Origin: Escherichia phage FL23
Length of the DNA stretch: 64,000 nucleotides
Reading direction: 5' to 3' (one strand)
Sequence record: PP400787
In this document: positions 1 to 57,562 of the stretch, piece by piece
Position numbering within the stretch: position 1 is the first letter of the stretch
Layout: every line of letters starts with the position of its first letter
The notes under the pieces: generated by a model
What the model was told of the DNA's origin: nothing
Databases searched by the model: none
What the model saw: the letters and a program-made list of their open reading frames with translations, nothing else
Translations under genes and position numbers: made by a program

Positions 1-1
1 A

Positions 2-184
2 GATAAAATTAAAGAATTGGTAGCTTTAATTCGCAAAGCAGATGAGGAACTTAGTGACTTTTCTTGGTTTTCGGCAGGCATTGCAAATAAAGGTATTGAA
101 AAATTTGAAGCTAAAGTTGATAATGCTTTAGAAGCGTTAGATATGTTTCTTGATGAAATTATCGATCATAATACGAGAGTTTAA
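2..184 (+). CDS. hypothetical protein, C-terminal fragment (start upstream of window)
   Basis: Open frame from window edge to TAA; same strand and packing as neighbours; no motif recognised. Confidence 0.3.
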   Translation, partial: DKIKELVALIRKADEELSDFSWFSAGIANKGIEKFEAKVDNALEALDMFLDEIIDHNTRV

Positions 185-186
185 TT

Positions 187-381
187 ATGCTAACACGTGA
201 ACAGTTTGAAAAAATTATTAAATTAGCACGTGATATTGAAATAGATTCATACCAATTAGCAGTTGAGCATTGTGAAGGATATTCATACGACGGTATAGAA
301 GCAGCTAAAAAGGATTTGGATAAATCCAAAGCTAAGTTAGTTCAATATCTTGAAATGATTAGGTGGAATAATGAAAACTGA
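187..381 (+). CDS. hypothetical protein (64 aa)
   Basis: ORF track; starts 3 nt after previous stop; acidic/helical composition. Confidence 0.4.
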   Translation: MLTREQFEKIIKLARDIEIDSYQLAVEHCEGYSYDGIEAAKKDLDKSKAKLVQYLEMIRWNNEN

Positions 382-546
382 AAAGCAGATGTTTTTAATG
401 AAGCTAATTGAAGAATATGCTAATGCAGTTTCTGACTATGAATGTTCTTCTCGGGAAAGAGGCACAGCTTTCGCTAAAGAAGAAATGAAAATCATGGTTG
501 ATGCTCACACAAAGCTTCAGAATTTTATTGAAAACGTCATTTAATG

Positions 547-583
547 GTTTACAAGTTGGCAAGATTATGATATAGTAATCTTG
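547..583 (+). promoter_or_regulatory. T4-type early promoter (GTTTAC -35, ~18 nt spacer, TATAGT -10) with dyad caagatt/aatcttg flanking the -10
   Basis: GTTTAC at 547-552; TATAGT ~571-576; same architecture as the promoter at 37371. Confidence 0.5.
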
Positions 584-711
584 TCAACTGCCAAGGAGAA
601 GAGAATGAAAGTTTTGTTTGTTGTGTATGTGATGATTCAATATAATTATCCAATGTTTACTTATAATCTGGTGAACAACATTATTGATATTATTCAAAGG
701 AGTATGTAATT

Positions 712-1269
712 GTGGGTGAGTCGAAGAGAATCAATATGAAACGATTAGTATTAGAAGTTAGTCCGCTTTTTGGTGAATTAGCTATAGAAAAAGTAAATAA
801 TATGTATCGTTTGACGCAAGAAGATGATATGTTATATTTTACGCCTAGTGAAATTGTTCGTTTAACCCAAATTGAATATGCTTATACTGATAAAATAGTA
901 AGCATCAATGATGAGCACAAAATTCATTTTTATTCTTCATGCCCAGGATTTAATATTAAAAGCGAGTCAATGTGCTTATCAATTAATAATTGGGATAATT
1001 TTATAACTAAGATTAAATATTTTTATTATTCTAATGAAAGAAAACATAGTTTAAAATGGCTCAAAAATTGCAATGCTATTATTACTAACGCTTGCAATCA
1101 GAATGATGAAACTGTTTTAAACGTATCAAAATGCTATGAAGATGGTGATGTCTTAACTATTCGTCAAATTGATGATTTTCGATCGTATATTGTCACATTT
1201 ACCAAAGACGAAGCTATTGCGTTAAAGACTTATCTCGATTCTGTTATTCCAACTATGACTTCAAAGTGA
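712..1269 (+). CDS. hypothetical protein (185 aa), paralog of the next gene
   Basis: GTG start 10 nt after AAGGAG; C-terminus (EAIALKTYLDSVIPTMTSK) resembles C-terminus of ORF 1276-1797 (EAEAMIKYLTTVTPSMKG). Confidence 0.5.
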   Translation: MGESKRINMKRLVLEVSPLFGELAIEKVNNMYRLTQEDDMLYFTPSEIVRLTQIEYAYTDKIVSINDEHKIHFYSSCPGFNIKSESMCLSINNWDNFITKIKYFYYSNERKHSLKWLKNCNAIITNACNQNDETVLNVSKCYEDGDVLTIRQIDDFRSYIVTFTKDEAIALKTYLDSVIPTMTSK

Positions 1270-1275
1270 GGAAAT

Positions 1276-1797
1276 ATGTTTATTTCAAGTGGAAGCGGTT
1301 TAATTCGTGTTGAATTTAAAAATGACATCTTTCTTATTCAAGGAGATGATATTATTAAAATGAGTTATGACGAAATCAAGAAAATTTGTCATGCTCTTGA
1401 AAGTCATGGAAAAGTGAACGCTGTTATTGATATTGGCGATTTATGGGTAACGCTTTATGAAGTATCCGAAGGATTTAACATTGAAGATGAAAATAACATT
1501 TTAGCTATTGATAAAAGAACTGATTTGTTTGATGTATTAAAAGCCTATGAGCAGTCAAATGGCGGAAGAAAAGCTGTATTGATTTATCAAAAACCGCATT
1601 CATGTGGAACTGCTTCAATCATTTCAAATATTGAAGGCGAAGTTGATACTTATATGTGTGTTTTAAAAGCTGATGGTGACCGTCATCCGGATTTTATTTC
1701 TATTCGTCAAAACAATGGAGAAATTTCATTATCAAAATCAGAAGCTGAAGCCATGATTAAGTATTTAACAACCGTTACGCCTTCAATGAAAGGATAA
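1276..1797 (+). CDS. hypothetical protein (173 aa), paralog of previous gene
   Basis: ORF track; shared C-terminal motif with 712-1269; 6-nt gap to previous gene. Confidence 0.5.
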   Translation: MFISSGSGLIRVEFKNDIFLIQGDDIIKMSYDEIKKICHALESHGKVNAVIDIGDLWVTLYEVSEGFNIEDENNILAIDKRTDLFDVLKAYEQSNGGRKAVLIYQKPHSCGTASIISNIEGEVDTYMCVLKADGDRHPDFISIRQNNGEISLSKSEAEAMIKYLTTVTPSMKG

Positions 1798-1799
1798 TT

Positions 1800-2261
1800 A
1801 TGATTATTAATGAAAACTCTTGGCACTATAAATTATTCAAATTGTTTAACGATGAATGGCAACGACCTAAGACACTATGCGCATATTTTTGGTCTATTGC
1901 CATTCCTACATTTTTCGTTTCTATTTTTGGATGTGCTATACTCGTAGGTCTAACAATTATTTGTGCAGAAAGCCTACAGCGTTGGATTATTTTTGGTAGT
2001 TTATGGACTTTGCTTCCATCAGCATTTATACTTGCGCTTTTGGTTGTTTTACTTATTATCGGTTCATTTGTTATTCCTGCACATTTGCGTGAAAAATATA
2101 AAGATTATAAATGGAAAAAGGATTATGCTTTACACGTAGAAAATATTGATAGGGCGTATAAAGGTTTATCTCCTATTCAACCCAAGAAATCGGTTATCGT
2201 TGAATTTTTAAAAGCTCGTAAAGCTAAAGTATGTCCTGTTATTGAATATAAGGCTGAATGA
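1800..2261 (+). CDS. small membrane protein (about 2 predicted TM helices)
   Basis: Two long hydrophobic stretches (IAIPTFFVSIFGCAILVGLTIICA and LLPSAFILALLVVLLIIGSFVIPA); stop overlaps start of next gene (ATGA). Confidence 0.5.
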   Translation: MIINENSWHYKLFKLFNDEWQRPKTLCAYFWSIAIPTFFVSIFGCAILVGLTIICAESLQRWIIFGSLWTLLPSAFILALLVVLLIIGSFVIPAHLREKYKDYKWKKDYALHVENIDRAYKGLSPIQPKKSVIVEFLKARKAKVCPVIEYKAE

Positions 2262-3271
2262 TGAAAACAGTAATGAAAAGTTATTTTGGTAGTCATCTTT
2301 ATGGAACTTCTACCCCAGAATCTGATGTAGATTTTAAAGAAATCTTTGTTCCTCCTGCTCGCGATATTCTTATCGGAAATGTTAAAGAGCATATGAGTAA
2401 AAATACTAACAATACATCATCTAAAAACACTAAAGATGATATTGACCATGAACTATACAGTCTTAAATATTTCTTTAAATTAGCAGCAGATGGTGAAACT
2501 GTAGCATTGGATATGCTTCACACTCCACCTGAACTAGTGGTTAAATCTGATTTGCCTGATGTGTGGAAGTTTATTCAAGACAACCGTTCTCGTTTTTATA
2601 CGACTAACATGAAATCCTATTTAGGATATGTCCGCAAGCAAGCTTCTAAATACGGTGTCAAGGGTTCTCGTTTGGCTGCATTACGTGATGTATTGAAAGT
2701 AGTTAATCAAATCCCTGAGCAGTGGATTGATTACCAAGAAGATGGTTCTATTAAGCAGCGTCGCACTAAAGTTGAAGATATTAAGCATCGTCTTCCAGAA
2801 AACGAATTCTGTGAATGGGTGTTCCATAATCATGAGAAAACAGGCCCACAAACGTTCTACACTGTGTTGGGTCGTAAATATCAGACAACGCTTTCTCTTA
2901 TTGAGCTTAAGCAGTCACTGAACAAATTAGATGCTGAATATGGTGAACGTGCTCGTAAGGCCGAAGCCAATGAAGGTATTGACTGGAAAGCTCTGAGTCA
3001 TGCTTGCCGTGGTGGACTCCAACTATTGGAAATTTACAAAACTGGTGACTTGGTTTATCCACTCCAAGATGCTCCATTTATTCTCGACGTGAAGTTGGGT
3101 AAACATCCATTTAAAACGGTTCAAGAGTTTTTGGAAGATGTGGTCGATCAAGTAGAAGCAGCATCTACTGAAGCTTCTAAGAACGGTATGCAGCAAAAAG
3201 TAGACATGGGTTTCTGGGATGACTTCCTTGAGAAGGTCTATCTTGAAAACCATCGAAGTTATTATAAATGA
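2258..3271 (+). CDS. Pol-beta-superfamily nucleotidyltransferase-like protein (337 aa)
   Basis: N-terminal YFGSHLYGTSTPESDVDF = G-S-x10-D-x-D nucleotidyltransferase signature; candidate third carboxylate in VALDMLH; helical C-terminal half. Confidence 0.6.
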   Translation: MMKTVMKSYFGSHLYGTSTPESDVDFKEIFVPPARDILIGNVKEHMSKNTNNTSSKNTKDDIDHELYSLKYFFKLAADGETVALDMLHTPPELVVKSDLPDVWKFIQDNRSRFYTTNMKSYLGYVRKQASKYGVKGSRLAALRDVLKVVNQIPEQWIDYQEDGSIKQRRTKVEDIKHRLPENEFCEWVFHNHEKTGPQTFYTVLGRKYQTTLSLIELKQSLNKLDAEYGERARKAEANEGIDWKALSHACRGGLQLLEIYKTGDLVYPLQDAPFILDVKLGKHPFKTVQEFLEDVVDQVEAASTEASKNGMQQKVDMGFWDDFLEKVYLENHRSYYK

Positions 3272-3272
3272 T

Positions 3273-3300
3273 AGGGAGCCTTCGGGCTCCCTTTTTTATT
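3273..3300 (+). terminator. rho-independent terminator (GC hairpin with UUCG loop plus T-run)
   Basis: agggagccTTCGggctccc followed by ttttttattt. Confidence 0.65.
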
Positions 3301-3303
3301 TCA

Positions 3304-3385
3304 AAAATTTTTCACAAAACTGTTTACAAGCATAAAGCTTTATGGTACTATACAACTATCAACTGATACGGATTTGGAGAATAAA
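3304..3385 (+). repeat. early promoter plus conserved leader cassette, copy 1
   Basis: aaaattttttcacaaaactGTTTAC...tggTACTATacaactatcaactgatacggatttGGAGaataaa; near-identical copies at 31884, 58641, 62275 and variants at 5458, 59148, 50480. Confidence 0.6.
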
Positions 3386-4354
3386 ATGAAAACTGTAACT
3401 ATCAATAAGGGTATCTACTTCGGTAAAGAAATCTCTGGAACTTTTGAGCTCTTAGGCGAATGGTTCCCAGATAATGCTCCGGTAGATGCACAAGGAGATG
3501 GTAAAGTTTTTGTTGAAATTGACGGTAAACGTCGCGGTGTTTGGGTTTACAAATCAGACATTTCATATGATGGTGTAAAAGTTGAAGAAGTTAAAGAATC
3601 ATATGAAGATATGAAAACCCGCATTAATAAAAGATTTAATGTTATGGGAATGATGACGAATGGTATTATTAACGGAAACATTCGTTCATTAATTATCTCT
3701 GGTGCGGCGGGTATTGGTAAAACGTATTCTTTAGATAAAGCTTTGAATAAAGCAAATGATAATGGATACATTGAGTATAAAAGCATTAATGGTAAAATCT
3801 CTGGTATCGGTCTTTATGAACAGCTTTGGAATAATCGTGAAGAGAATTCTGTCCTTTTGATTGATGATGTGGATGTTTTCTCTGATATGGACATTCTTAA
3901 TCTTCTGAAAGCTGCTCTGGACACTGGAGAGACCCGTAAAGTCTGCTGGAGCACTGCATCTTCTTACTTAGAAGAAAAAGGCATTGAGCGTGAGTTTGAA
4001 TTTAAAGGAACGATTGTTTTTATCACAAACGTTGACATTGACCGCGAATTAGACCGTGGTACTAAACTTGCTCCACATTTACAAGCATTAGTGTCCCGCT
4101 CAGTTTATTTAGATTTGGGTGTTCACACTAATGAAGAAATTATGGTCAGGGTTGAAGATGTTATTCTTTCAACTGACATGATGCAAAAGCGCGGTCTTTC
4201 TGATGAAGAAACTTATAAAGCATTATCATGGATGAAAGTCAATGTTAATCGTTTACGCAATGTTTCACTGCGTACTGCTCTTTATCTTGCTGACTTTATT
4301 ATGACCGACAAAAACCATTGGGAAGAAATCGCTGAAACGGTATTATTAAAATGA
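3386..4354 (+). CDS. AAA+/P-loop ATPase (323 aa)
   Basis: Walker A GAAGIGKT, Walker B VLLIDDVD; ATG 6 nt after GGAG of the conserved leader. Confidence 0.6.
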   Translation: MKTVTINKGIYFGKEISGTFELLGEWFPDNAPVDAQGDGKVFVEIDGKRRGVWVYKSDISYDGVKVEEVKESYEDMKTRINKRFNVMGMMTNGIINGNIRSLIISGAAGIGKTYSLDKALNKANDNGYIEYKSINGKISGIGLYEQLWNNREENSVLLIDDVDVFSDMDILNLLKAALDTGETRKVCWSTASSYLEEKGIEREFEFKGTIVFITNVDIDRELDRGTKLAPHLQALVSRSVYLDLGVHTNEEIMVRVEDVILSTDMMQKRGLSDEETYKALSWMKVNVNRLRNVSLRTALYLADFIMTDKNHWEEIAETVLLK

Positions 4355-5070
4355 AAAAATATTTTACTATCTATAAAACTGAAATATTAAATTTAAAGAC
4401 AGGTATTAAGAAATACTATTATGGTCGACATATAACTAATAATACCAATGATTCGTATGTTGGTAGTGGAAATTATATAGAACGTGTAAAAGTGTCAAAT
4501 GACCACATATTATCAAAAACGGTTTTAGAAGTTTTTGATAATTATGATAAAATGGTACAAGCTGAAATATTATATATCATGGCAGGTAAATTGAAATATG
4601 GGAAAAACTGTGTTAACCTGTCATACGGGGGTGAAGGAGGAAAGGTTGCAGATGAAACTAGGATAAAATGCAAAAAGCATTCTATAAATTTATGGAAAAA
4701 TCCTAATCATATACAGCATATGAAGAAAAAGATGAAAGAGGTCACATCCACGCCGGAAGCTAAATTAAACACTTCAATAAAAACTTCGCAACGATATAAG
4801 GACCCGGTTTTTGTTAGAAAAGTTAGTAATATTATTAAAAAGAAACTAAGCAATCCTGCAGTAAAAGAAAAGCATATTAATGGAATTAAAGCTGCAAAGC
4901 GTTCTCATTTAACTATATGGCAGTATGAAGATGAATTATTCGAGCTCTGGAAAGAAACTAAATGTGGATGGAGAAAATTTACAAAGGAAGCTATAAAACA
5001 CGGATATCCAAATGAACCGTATCGTAGTATGGTATCAACTTTTCAGAAAAGACATTTAGAAGAATCCTAA
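4351..5070 (+). CDS. free-standing GIY-YIG homing endonuclease (Seg-like)
   Basis: N-terminal IYKTEILNLKTGIKKYYYGRH ... YVGSG module shared with the segF-like ORF at 40822; K/N-rich C-terminal DNA-binding repeats; ATGA overlap with upstream gene. Confidence 0.6.
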   Translation: MKKYFTIYKTEILNLKTGIKKYYYGRHITNNTNDSYVGSGNYIERVKVSNDHILSKTVLEVFDNYDKMVQAEILYIMAGKLKYGKNCVNLSYGGEGGKVADETRIKCKKHSINLWKNPNHIQHMKKKMKEVTSTPEAKLNTSIKTSQRYKDPVFVRKVSNIIKKKLSNPAVKEKHINGIKAAKRSHLTIWQYEDELFELWKETKCGWRKFTKEAIKHGYPNEPYRSMVSTFQKRHLEES

Positions 5071-5140
5071 GACAAAAAGGCAGTTCAGAAATAGATTATA
5101 TGGACTGCCATCAAAAAGATGACTAGAATTAAACTGGTAA

Positions 5141-5455
5141 ATGGAGGTAATGATGTTATACTCAAAGGCTCGTGAAATTTACGAAACTAAAATTAAAGAA
5201 GCAGTATTTAAGTTCGCAACGACAATGCGATGGACAAATGACTGGGAGTATTCAAAAAATCATAAGAAGCCCATGGTGACAAGAAAGGCTCATATGTTAG
5301 TGTTAATAGACCGTGAGCAGATTAAAGCCCGAGAAGCCCTCCAGAATCATAAAAAGGCTGCCTTTGAATGGTTTATGGATAACACTGCTCCTGAGACTAA
5401 GAAAGCAGTGAGTGCATGGTTCAGTGGAAAAAATTGTGAAAGAAGTTTCTTTTAG
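5141..5455 (+). CDS. hypothetical protein (104 aa)
   Basis: ORF track only. Confidence 0.4.
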   Translation: MEVMMLYSKAREIYETKIKEAVFKFATTMRWTNDWEYSKNHKKPMVTRKAHMLVLIDREQIKAREALQNHKKAAFEWFMDNTAPETKKAVSAWFSGKNCERSFF

Positions 5456-54434: not shown

Positions 54435-56612
54435 ATGATTATCACCACTGAAAAAGAAACAATTCTTGGTAATGGTTCTAAATCAAAGGCATTTAGCATC
54501 ACAGCATCTCCTAAAGTATTTAAAATTTTGTCATCTGATTTGTATACAAACAAGATTCGCGCAGTAGTCCGCGAATTGATTACCAACATGATTGATGCCC
54601 ATGCTCTCAATGGAAATCCTGAAAAATTTATCATTCAAGTTCCAGGACGATTAGATCCGCGATTTGTTTGTCGAGATTTTGGTCCAGGTATGAGCGATTT
54701 TGATATTCAAGGTGATGATAATTCTCCTGGGTTGTATAATTCATACTTCAGTTCATCTAAAGCTGAATCTAACGATTTCATTGGTGGATTTGGTTTAGGT
54801 TCTAAATCTCCATTTAGTTATACTGATACGTTTAGTATTACTTCATATCATAAAGGTGAAATTCGTGGTTATGTAGCTTATATGGATGGTGATGGTCCAC
54901 AGATTAAACCTACATTCGTAAAAGAAATGGGTCCAGATGATAAAACTGGTATTGAAATCGTAGTTCCAGTTGAAGAAAAAGACTTTAGAAACTTTGCTTA
55001 TGAAGTTTCTTATATCATGCGACCGTTCAAAGATTTGGCTATCATTAATGGTCTTGACCGCGAAATTGATTATTTTCCGGATTTTGATGATTATTATGGC
55101 GTAAATCCAGAAAGATACTGGCCAGATCGTGGTGGATTGTACGCTATCTATGGTGGTATTGTTTATCCTATTGACGGTGTTATTAGAGACCGTAACTGGT
55201 TAAGCATTCGCAATGAAGTGAATTATATTAAGTTTCCAATGGGTTCACTTGATATTGCTCCATCGCGTGAGGCTCTTTCGCTGGATGATCGTACTCGTAA
55301 AAATATTATTGAGCGTGTTAAAGAGCTTAGTGAGAAGGCATTCAATGAAGATGTAAAACGATTTAAAGAATCTACATCTCCTCGTCATACATACCGTGAA
55401 TTGATGAAGATGGGATATTCTGCTCGAGATTATATGATTAGCAATTCAGTCAAATTCACGACTAAAAATCTGTCATATAAAAAGATGCAGAGCATGTTTG
55501 AACCTGACAGTAAGTTATGCAATGCAGGGGTTGTGTATGAAGTAAATCTTGACCCTCGACTGAAACGCATTAAGCAAAGCCATGAAACTTCAGCCGTTGC
55601 GTCAAGCTATCGTCTGTTTGGTATTAATACGACAAAAATTAATATTGTTATTGATAATACTAAAAATCGTGTTAATATTGTCCGTGGATTAGCACGCGCG
55701 TTAGATGATAGTGAATTTAATAACACTTTGAATATTCATCACAATGAGCGGCTTCTGTTTATTAATCCGGAAGTAGAATCACAGATTGATTTACTCCCTG
55801 ATATTATGGCAATGTTTGAAAGTGATGAAGTTAACATTCATTATTTGTCAGAAATTGAAGCTTTAGTTAAAAGTTATATTCCAAAGGCAGTAAAAAGTAC
55901 AGCTCCTCGTCCTAAAGCTGCTACTGCATTTAAGTTTGAAATTAAAGACGGGCGCTGGGAAAAAGAGGAACTATTTACGCTCACATCAGAAGCAGATGAA
56001 ATTACTGGTTATGTAGCATACATGCATCGTTCTGATATTTTCTCTATGGATGGTACTACATCGCTTTGTCATCCATCTACGAGTATTTTGACTCGTATGG
56101 CTAATCTTATTGGCATTAATGAATTTTATGTTATTCGTCCGCTTTTGCAGAAAAAGGTAAAAGAACTCGGTCAGTGTCAATGTATTTTTGAAACTCTACG
56201 TGATTTATATGTAGATGCTTTTGATGCTGTAGATTATGATAAGTATGTAGGTTATTCAAGTTCAGCTAAACGATACATTGATAAAATTATCAAGTATCCT
56301 GAGTTAGATTTTATGATGAAGTACTTCAGTGTAGATGAAGTTTCTGAAGAATATACACGACTCGCTAATATGGTTAGTTCATTACAGGGTGTATATTTCA
56401 ACGGTGGAAAAGATACCATCGGTCATGACATCTGGACAGTAACTAATCTTTTTGATGTATTATCAAATAATGCTTCAAAAAACAGTGATAAAATGGTTGC
56501 TGAGTTTACCAAGAAATTCCGTATTGTTTCCGACTTCATCGGTTATCGCAACTCTTTAAGTGATGATGAAGTTTCCCAAATCGCTAAAACTATGAAGGCC
56601 CTTGCGGCCTAA
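54435..56612 (+). CDS. rIIA: rIIA protein
   Basis: 725 aa; N-terminal GHKL-like ATPase region ([15 protein letters not shown]); T4 rIIA length. Confidence 0.9.
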
Positions 56613-56623
56613 TAAGGAAAATT

Positions 56624-57562
56624 ATGTACAATATTAAATGCCTGACCAAAAACGAACAAGCTGAAATTGTCAAACTGTATTCAAGTGGTAATTACACCCA
56701 ACAGGAATTGGCTGATTGGCAAGGTGTATCGGTGGACACAATCCGTCGTGTTTTGAAAAATGCTGAAGAAGCTGAGCGCTCCAAAGTTACCATTAGCGGT
56801 GACATTACAGTTACAGTTAATAGCGATGCAGTTATTGCTCCAGTTGCTAAATCTGATATTGTTTGGAATGCATCTAAAAAATTCATTTCAATTACCGTTG
56901 ACGGCGTAACTTATAACGCAACTCCTAATACTCATTCAAACTTCCAAGAAATTCTTAATCTGCTTGTTGCAGATAAATTGGAAGAAGCTGCGCAAAAAAT
57001 TAACGTTCGTCGCGCTGTTGAAAAATATATTTCCGGTGATGTTCGAATTGAAGGTGGAAGCTTGTTCTATCAAAACATTGAATTACGGTCTGGTTTAGTT
57101 GATCGTATTCTCGATTCGATGGAAAAAGGTGAAAACTTTGAATTTTATTTTCCGTTCCTGGAAAATCTGCTGGAAAACCCAAGCCAAAAAGCAGTATCTC
57201 GACTCTTTGATTTCTTGGTAGCAAATGATATTGAAATTACAGAAGATGGTTACTTCTATGCTTGGAAAGTAGTTCGCAGCAATTACTTTGATTGTCACTC
57301 AAATACCTTTGATAACAGCCCTGGTAAAGTAGTTAAAATGCCACGTACTCGCGTGAATGACGATGATACGCAAACTTGTTCTCGTGGTCTGCATGTGTGT
57401 TCTAAATCTTATATTCGTCACTTTGGCAGTTCAACCAGCCGAGTTGTAAAAGTTAAAGTACATCCTCGCGATGTAGTATCAATTCCGATTGATTATAACG
57501 ACGCTAAAATGCGTACCTGCCAATACGAAGTAGTTGAAGACGTTACTGAACAATTTAAATAA
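56624..57562 (+). CDS. rIIB: rIIB protein
   Basis: 312 aa; immediately downstream of rIIA; T4 rIIB length. Confidence 0.85.
   Translation: MYNIKCLTKNEQAEIVKLYSSGNYTQQELADWQGVSVDTIRRVLKNAEEAERSKVTISGDITVTVNSDAVIAPVAKSDIVWNASKKFISITVDGVTYNATPNTHSNFQEILNLLVADKLEEAAQKINVRRAVEKYISGDVRIEGGSLFYQNIELRSGLVDRILDSMEKGENFEFYFPFLENLLENPSQKAVSRLFDFLVANDIEITEDGYFYAWKVVRSNYFDCHSNTFDNSPGKVVKMPRTRVNDDDTQTCSRGLHVCSKSYIRHFGSSTSRVVKVKVHPRDVVSIPIDYNDAKMRTCQYEVVEDVTEQFK

Follow-up and report, generated by a model that had tools for sequence, protein, structure and literature searches.

The nucleotidyltransferase encoded beside a two-helix membrane protein in phage FL23 is an NrdC.11 orthologue and a probable RlaP-family RNA-end repair enzyme

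What might a nucleotidyltransferase (NTase) be doing when its gene overlaps the end of a gene for a small membrane protein? The question is raised by positions 547-3300 of a 64,000-nt stretch of DNA from Escherichia phage FL23 (sequence record PP400787; the whole stretch is called the window below), where five close-packed open reading frames (ORFs), all on the + strand (605-709, 712-1269, 1276-1797, 1800-2261 and 2258-3271), lie between an early promoter-like site and a strong terminator. An earlier note on this DNA had seen in the last two genes the logic of a minimal cyclic-nucleotide signalling module, i.e. a cGAS/DncV-like nucleotidyltransferase (CD-NTase) with a transmembrane (TM) effector, or else that of a nucleotide-modifying counter-defence enzyme. 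The answer reached here is less exotic: the seemingly orphan pair of NTase and membrane protein is the known nrdC.11 region of T4-type phages, an ordinary and already catalogued block, whose enzyme, NrdC.11, probably helps to repair tRNAs cut by host defence nucleases, acting as an RNA-end nucleotidyltransferase of the RlaP family, members of which have now been shown to patch RNA 3' ends. That likely role has already been proposed in print, where the antidote idea goes back to 2016, and is not original to the present analysis, the value of which lies in the correction.

How securely can the locus be placed? Window positions 400-3500 are 100% identical to Escherichia phage FL44 (PP400790.1, Tequatrovirus), where the stretch lies on the minus strand, and 95-97% identical to hundreds of T4-type phages. 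With gene names taken from the annotations of phages AR1 and T4, region 547-3300 is, judged by its sequence matches, the accessory operon of a T4-type phage in which mobD.2 and mobD.1 are followed by a paralogue, a 2-TM gene and nrdC.11 (2-TM denoting the protein with two TM segments encoded at 1800-2261). Three of the five ORFs are thus the named T4 genes mobD.2, mobD.1 and nrdC.11, so that the note, which could name no T4 match for any of the proteins, has to be corrected, although its fallback, according to which the operon could be the equivalent of uncharacterised T4 nrdC-proximal ORFs, proved right: the last gene (2258-3271, + strand) encodes a 337-residue protein 98% identical to T4 NrdC.11 (NP_049709), the T4 start corresponding to the second ATG, at 2261. 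The anatomy described in the note, with its early promoter, five ORFs and strong terminator, is present in all its features. Successive ORFs are separated by gaps of 2, 6 and 2 nt and finally by an ATGA stop/start overlap, and a purine-rich, Shine-Dalgarno-like run precedes each of them, an arrangement that fits translational coupling.

The family to which NrdC.11 belongs is plain from several sides. The protein passes the Pfam RlaP model (PF10127, 'RNA ligase-associated Pol-beta', a naming that goes back to Burroughs and Aravind, or 'RNA repair pathway DNA polymerase beta family') with 44.2 bits (E 2.5e-11; gathering score 23), and among the PHROGs it matches phrog_388, 'nucleotidyltransferase', at 8e-137. 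An exhaustive profile-free search returned 3428 representatives of its relatives, and every listed homologue of the indexed searches carries a precomputed PF10127 assignment. The NTase motif G11-S12-x10-D23-V24-D25, from which a Pol-beta fold had been read in the first place, is intact and invariant in 68 homologues; the same 68-sequence alignment (39-99% identity) also holds D61, D63, D85, R231, H248, R251, K279 and others invariant, and proteins encoded in bacterial RNA-repair operons (a nine-sequence alignment) keep these residues except D63. The invariant motif and acidic residues together indicate that the catalytic apparatus is intact, with at least one further conserved carboxylate available as the third metal ligand (candidates D61, D63 and D85).

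An AlphaFold2 (AF2) model built on the 68 aligned sequences, with a predicted local distance difference test score (pLDDT) of 89.4, consists of an alpha/beta core (residues 3-115), a beta-rich segment (~153-212, five strands) and helices (214-336). The middle segment lies outside the Pfam match and is retained in the bacterial relatives from RNA-repair operons, which align over their full length; going by the model, it may represent a clade-specific RNA-binding insert. Searched against the sequences of solved structures, neither NrdC.11 nor its N-terminal half nor its family profile gave anything relevant, and Foldseek against the PDB gave only weak generic NTase matches (best E 4e-3). The features shared with the RlaP family are PF10127 itself, the GS...DxD motif with further invariant aspartates, and close relatives in RtcB and Pnkp-Hen1 operons; the AF2 model, too, places an NTase core before C-terminal helices. 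On these sequence features, NrdC.11 is likely to be a template-independent nucleotidyltransferase of the RlaP family.

What do such enzymes do? According to a December 2025 preprint (10.64898/2025.12.29.696909), two RlaP proteins from Pseudomonas RtcB operons, PfRlaP and PaRlaP, add one or two nucleoside monophosphates (NMPs), or their deoxy counterparts (dNMPs), to the 3'-OH ends of RNA; they favour Mn2+ and, in a cleaved tRNA mimic, the 5' half; they can use any nucleoside triphosphate (NTP) or dATP, with little NTP specificity, to label rRNA, tRNA and fragments; they do not accept DNA or E. coli proteins as substrates, and they partly restore the aminoacylation of a tRNA that lacks one anticodon-loop nucleotide. 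The crystal structure of PfRlaP, reported in the same work, has an NTase domain at its N-terminus and a helical one at its C-terminus, and its last helix packs back; T4 NrdC.11 is marked there as an uncharacterised PF10127 member in cluster 5 of a similarity network (10.64898/2025.12.29.696909). The distribution of RlaP in jumbo phages was found to mirror that of RNA ligases, and the family was predicted to restore nucleotides removed by RloC-type nucleases (Iyer et al., PMC7824862). RloC excises the wobble nucleotide and is expected in this way to defeat repair by T4 Pnk/Rnl1 (PMC3458546).

How would NrdC.11 most likely act? A host anticodon nuclease of the RloC type ('wobble-excising') would cut a tRNA and remove a nucleotide; NrdC.11 would then extend the 5' tRNA fragment at its 3'-OH by one or two NMPs; and the phage's own Pnkp and RNA ligase 1, the genes of which (pseT and rnlA) lie in other parts of T4-type genomes, would seal an anticodon loop of full length. 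In this scheme, the activity that adds NMPs to RNA 3' ends, the damaged tRNA as its substrate and the cooperation with Pnkp and Rnl1 are all carried over to NrdC.11 from its relatives and from genome content. If the scheme is true, T4-type phages carry a third tRNA-repair component beside Pnkp and Rnl1, answering nucleotide-excising anticodon nucleases such as RloC. The counter-defence half of the earlier suggestion was thus broadly right, as it fits the proposed role of the family as an antidote to tRNA-cutting ribotoxins.

The company kept by the relatives of NrdC.11 points in the same direction. For this comparison one genome per bacterial species was scanned and the 80 closest loci (30-54% identical, with matches that mostly extend over nearly the full length) were fetched, their recurrent neighbours being clustered and annotated with Pfam within a distance limit of 5 kb. 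RtcB, Hen1, Pnkp or Ro60 occurs in 15 of these 80 loci, mostly in the same orientation as the relative: RtcB in ten, Hen1 in seven, Pnkp (the kinase-phosphatase-ligase) in five and Ro60/TROVE-vWA also in five. Hen1, Pnkp and RlaP are contiguous on one strand in three loci (L058, L083 and L087), and in another (L084) RtcB and RlaP are separated by 5 nt, so that these bacterial relatives are embedded in RNA-repair operons. Among phages, when records are grouped by the word with which the phage name begins, the counts for nrdC.11, Pnkp and Rnl1 run almost in parallel (286/286/287 for Klebsiella, 83/83/83 for Shigella and 69/70/69 for Acinetobacter), which is consistent with cooperation, if weak evidence of it, since T4-like phages share all three genes widely.

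Several observations pull against a role in tRNA repair. Activity has been demonstrated for PfRlaP and PaRlaP, which lie outside the clade of NrdC.11 (10.64898/2025.12.29.696909): they fall into cluster 1a of the network as opposed to its cluster 5, and NrdC.11 also differs from them in its length (~337 residues against the 249 positions of the Pfam model), in having the extra insert at ~153-212 and in lacking an adjacent ligase gene in FL23. The Pfam match covers residues 7-135 only, and the insert is absent from the preprint's two-domain description of PfRlaP. No RNA ligase is encoded in the FL23 operon or its neighbourhood as far as window position 5070, and in T4 pseT and rnlA lie ~78 kb from nrdC.11. 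As many as 65 of the 80 bacterial loci have no RNA-repair neighbour within 5 kb. Random nucleotide addition would restore only a fraction of the tRNAs, and the product of RlaP is chemically incompatible with RtcB (10.64898/2025.12.29.696909). Finally, the conserved, translationally coupled synteny with the 2-TM gene in several genera is not accounted for.

Could NrdC.11 then extend RNA 3' ends for a purpose other than repair, e.g. by tailing host or phage RNAs for decay or stability, or by topping up tRNA 3' ends? The indifference of the characterised enzymes towards the RNA and the nucleotide that they are offered would suit such a role, as would the lack of a ligase in the FL23 operon and the many bacterial relatives without a repair neighbour; and in a Barbavirus, Rheinheimera phage Barba19A (positions 747-3400 of locus L017), a CCA-adding tRNA nucleotidyltransferase and a hydrolase are encoded ahead of RlaP. 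Addition by PfRlaP and PaRlaP, however, halts after one or two nucleotides and is directed preferentially to the 5' half of a cleaved tRNA, and operons shared again and again with RtcB, Pnkp-Hen1 and Ro60 speak for repair, which leaves tailing for its own sake rather unlikely.

RNA-related neighbours in phages outside the T4 core group also count in favour of the repair reading: besides the CCA-adding enzyme gene of Barba19A, a ProQ_C-like gene lies directly upstream of RlaP and overlaps its start in a Pseudotevenvirus, Citrobacter phage Margaery (2121-3496 of locus L016). In a metagenomic phage-like contig of ~336 kb (L007/L008, 6023-9480), a Band_7/SPFH gene and genes for three small membrane proteins, unrelated to the 2-TM family of FL23, lie 5' of the RlaP relative and a dual-specificity phosphatase-like gene lies 3' of it.

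A different kind of doubt concerns the substrate. The Pol-beta fold also serves enzymes that nucleotidylate proteins or small molecules, in the manner of MNT/MntA, GlnE, DrrA or kanamycin nucleotidyltransferase (KNTase), and NrdC.11 might for instance AMPylate a host HEPN RNase toxin as a form of counter-defence. Here the likeness is generic to the fold, at 4-16% identity. KNTase/ANT(4') and the uncharacterised NTase-like protein 3c18, for example, resemble NrdC.11 at fold level only (8-13% identity), and KNTase/ANT(4') act on small molecules, unlike the RNA substrate proposed for NrdC.11. The protein that clears the RlaP threshold reaches only 13.2 bits with the MntA equivalog model, the cutoff of which is 60; E. 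coli proteins are not among the substrates of PfRlaP and PaRlaP, and neither is DNA; and the context of the bacterial relatives is RNA repair and not HEPN toxins. A protein or small-molecule target is on these grounds quite unlikely.

The membrane protein calls for a closer description. The gene at 1800-2261 (+ strand) encodes 153 residues that are predicted to form a two-helix hairpin, on the basis of hydropathy, charge distribution, family alignments and a match to phrog_944, 'membrane protein'. In agreement with the two TM segments claimed for it at the outset, hydrophobic segments span residues ~28-55 and 62-92 (maximum KD19 2.99) and are followed by a basic C-terminal tail with 15 K/R; the low-confidence AF2 model (pLDDT 63) has two long helices, with short ones on the N- and C-terminal sides. 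Family members conserve an N-terminal NSWHY...PKTLCAYFW motif and the basic C-terminal KARKAKVCP. There was no significant Pfam, PADLOC or NCBIfam match, and searches of PDB chains with the single sequence and with the family profile, at E up to 10, returned nothing but CrcB noise.

Where is this protein found? A homologue search gave 23 clusters, and those that are annotated all come from T4-like phages. By tblastn, 850 phage records carry the 2-TM protein and 1517 carry NrdC.11, both being totals of records, not per-genome counts, in which diverged 2-TM homologues such as that of Acinetobacter phage Acj61 are missed. The gene lies directly 5' of nrdC.11 in RB32-type Tequatrovirus, Mosigvirus and Gaprivervirus and three small genes 5' of it in Jiaodavirus and Winklervirus, while in Acj61 (1212-2092) and related metagenomic contigs the family hidden Markov model (HMM) detected two tandem 2-TM copies, followed by a 94-codon gene and nrdC.11. 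The Acj61 copies, of 164 and 129 residues, were found by the HMM and not by plain tblastn, among whose named groups there are no Acinetobacter phages. This proximity across several T4-like genera and Acj61 implies that it is old.

Is an old neighbour also a necessary one? T4 has no 2-TM gene while keeping a 98%-identical NrdC.11; no gene of the 2-TM family was found beside the enzyme in the Tulanevirus, Pseudotevenvirus, Schizotequatrovirus and Barbavirus genomes and the two metagenomic large-phage contigs that were examined; and no member of the family occurs in any of the 80 bacterial loci. Some Tequatrovirus copies of the gene look disrupted, those of T2, TadeuszReichstein and vB_EcoM_CE1 and a fourth copy (P0385) among the database representatives, and in T2 NrdC.11 is full-length and ~99% identical despite the disrupted-looking 2-TM gene. 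With the enzyme occurring alone in T4, in other phage genera and in bacteria, and with the T2 copy looking disrupted, the enzyme clearly does not need the 2-TM protein, which is a lineage-restricted neighbour. As to the nature of the apparent disruptions, the T2 copy has a different N-terminus, derived from the +1 frame that is seen in the window at 1810-1947, whereas truncation behind the second TM helix deprives the others of the conserved KARKAKVCP motif.

It is improbable that the pair constitutes a real functional module, in which the membrane protein would be gated by nucleic-acid products of the NTase, or would serve as a tether placing RNA-end repair near membrane-bound ribosomes, the loss in T4 being secondary to the insertion of mobD; such a view draws on the conserved, translationally coupled pairing in several Tevenvirinae genera and in an Acinetobacter phage of the Twarogvirinae.

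The gated version of this idea has a known parallel in Hailong, where the HalA channel is checked by the nucleic-acid products of HalB, and the phage pair might by analogy serve to exclude competitors or to interfere with a host Hailong system. The parallel consists of the pairing of a TM gene with an NTase gene and of HalB (PDB 9dbh; 217 residues; maker of oligo-dA) as the best fold match. The likeness to HalB, however, at 15% identity, does not extend past the generic NTase core and has no counterpart at sequence level, and the 2-TM family has no match among PDB chains, in Pfam or in PADLOC that would tie it to a channel of this kind. Moreover, the clade of NrdC.11 is found in RNA-repair operons and lacks a TM partner in all 80 bacterial loci, the enzyme persists without the TM gene in T4 and several further phage lineages, and the gene order of T4-like genomes is so broadly conserved that adjacency is weak evidence. 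A Hailong-like module is for these reasons very improbable, given that the structural resemblance is generic and that the positive evidence points to RNA repair.

The signalling module first suggested, in which a CD-NTase would make a cyclic nucleotide and activate a TM effector, as in a minimal version of cyclic oligonucleotide-based antiphage signalling (CBASS), is effectively refuted: nothing favours it except that an NTase-fold gene lies beside a gene for a small membrane protein, NrdC.11 is an RlaP member that has only the catalytic motif of the Pol-beta superfamily in common with CD-NTases and shows no CD-NTase sequence, profile or cGAS/DncV/OAS fold match above the generic level, there is no Pfam or PADLOC match to such a system, the 2-TM protein matches no known CBASS effector family and no nucleotide-sensing effector is present, and joint inheritance fails in T4, in four other phage genera, in the two metagenomic large-phage contigs and in the 80 bacterial loci.

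Returning to NrdC.11 as a probable tRNA-repair enzyme, how does its operon compare with that of T4, the phage in which it has been named? The T4 mobD.2-mobD.1-mobD-nrdC.11 operon resembles that of FL23 in its enzyme (98% identical), in mobD.1 and mobD.2 (90-91%), in the promoter sequence and in having nrdC.10 downstream; it differs in carrying the HNH homing-endonuclease gene mobD in place of the second mobD.1 paralogue and the 2-TM gene. By blastn, the window is homologous to T4 at 2-1294 and 2257-4333, and there is no homology in 1295-2256 (962 nt, not assigned to a strand), which delimits this cassette of second paralogue and 2-TM gene. The slot occupied by mobD in T4 (T4 56450-57257) lies exactly opposite window 1295-2256, and homology restarts at the first base of nrdC.11. 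The insertion site of mobD is given as nrdC.11/mobD.1 by Edgell et al. (PMC2988022), and it may be that the insertion of mobD displaced the second paralogue and the 2-TM gene in the T4 lineage. A T4 deletion covering nrdC.11-mobD.3 is viable (PMC9825161); the operon is thus dispensable in T4 under laboratory conditions and the block accessory, as would be expected for the region of an accessory counter-defence gene.

A putative early promoter of the sigma-70 type, proposed from a consensus scan, spans 548-576 on the + strand (-35 TTTACA, a 17-nt spacer and an extended -10, TG-n-TATAGT), with 10 of 12 consensus matches plus the upstream TG; T4 and AR1 have the same two hexamers, and the only differences in the 81-nt region fall on three spacer positions. 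At the other end, a terminator scan and RNA folding agree on an intrinsic terminator at 3273-3298 (+ strand; GGGAGCC-UUCG-GGCUCCC followed by a U-run), of which the hairpin (3273-3292) has an 8-bp stem with six G-C pairs and a UUCG loop ahead of the T-run, and a minimum free energy of -17.7 kcal/mol (z = -3.68 against shuffles). Neither PADLOC nor NCBIfam gave anything significant for any gene of the locus, and Rfam matched no RNA family in window 1-5200.

The micro-ORF at 605-709 (+ strand, 34 residues), with AGGAG ~7 nt 5' of its ATG at 605, is the mobD.2 orthologue (91% identical to T4 mobD.2; phrog_3515, E 6.5e-22); it had been called hydrophobic, which holds in a mild sense only, its maximum KD19 of 1.02 leaving no TM segment. 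It is followed by the mobD.1 orthologue of the y05I family (712-1269, + strand; 90% identical to T4 mobD.1; T4_y05I_N at 1.5e-42 and T4_y05I_C at 1.9e-20) and by a second, divergent member of that family without a T4 counterpart (1276-1797, + strand, 173 residues), which has the same two Pfam domains. Their description as paralogues was correct: at 24% identity (E 3e-10; 24-25% between the second paralogue and mobD.1) they are distant but true paralogues, and both pass the gathering scores of the T4 y05I/mobD.1 family models (PF24449 and PF24448), for which Pfam offers no label other than putative transcription factors. The second paralogue is present in 448 phage records by tblastn, 433 of them at >=90% identity, and is almost confined to Tequatrovirus-like phages. 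Genes 5' of nrdC.11 in Jiaodavirus, Winklervirus, Pseudotevenvirus and Tulanevirus were also considered as mobD.1 relatives; at 11-19% identity and with no Pfam match, kinship is not demonstrated. The start of mobD.1 itself is ambiguous between GTG 712 and ATG 736. The former follows a strong AGGAG at a distance of 9 nt, and its use would mean a 2-nt gap behind mobD.2; the AR1 annotation begins at the equivalent of 736, and the T4 start is intermediate.

Downstream of the terminator, nrdC.10 (3374/3386-4354) has its own early-type promoter-like site at 3323-3351 and encodes a P-loop protein of 322-326 residues (phrog_1250), with sub-threshold matches to nSTAND3 (1e-4) and AAA_16 (2e-4). Unlike T4, FL23 has a seg-like gene after nrdC.10: the ORF at 4351-5070, between nrdC.10 and nrdC.9, encodes a GIY-YIG homing endonuclease of 239 residues (phrog_314, E 1e-29), T4 lacks the DNA of window 4334-5066, and AR1 annotates a shorter gene (165 residues) there as segE. 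The naming of the whole region invites confusion. In FL44 (PP400790.1, 43849-50022) and many other phages annotated by RAST, most nrdC.x genes, including nrdC.11, are mislabelled 'thioredoxin', and several RefSeq mobD.x genes are mislabelled 'molybdopterin-guanine dinucleotide biosynthesis protein MobD'; both labels are propagated errors worth fixing.

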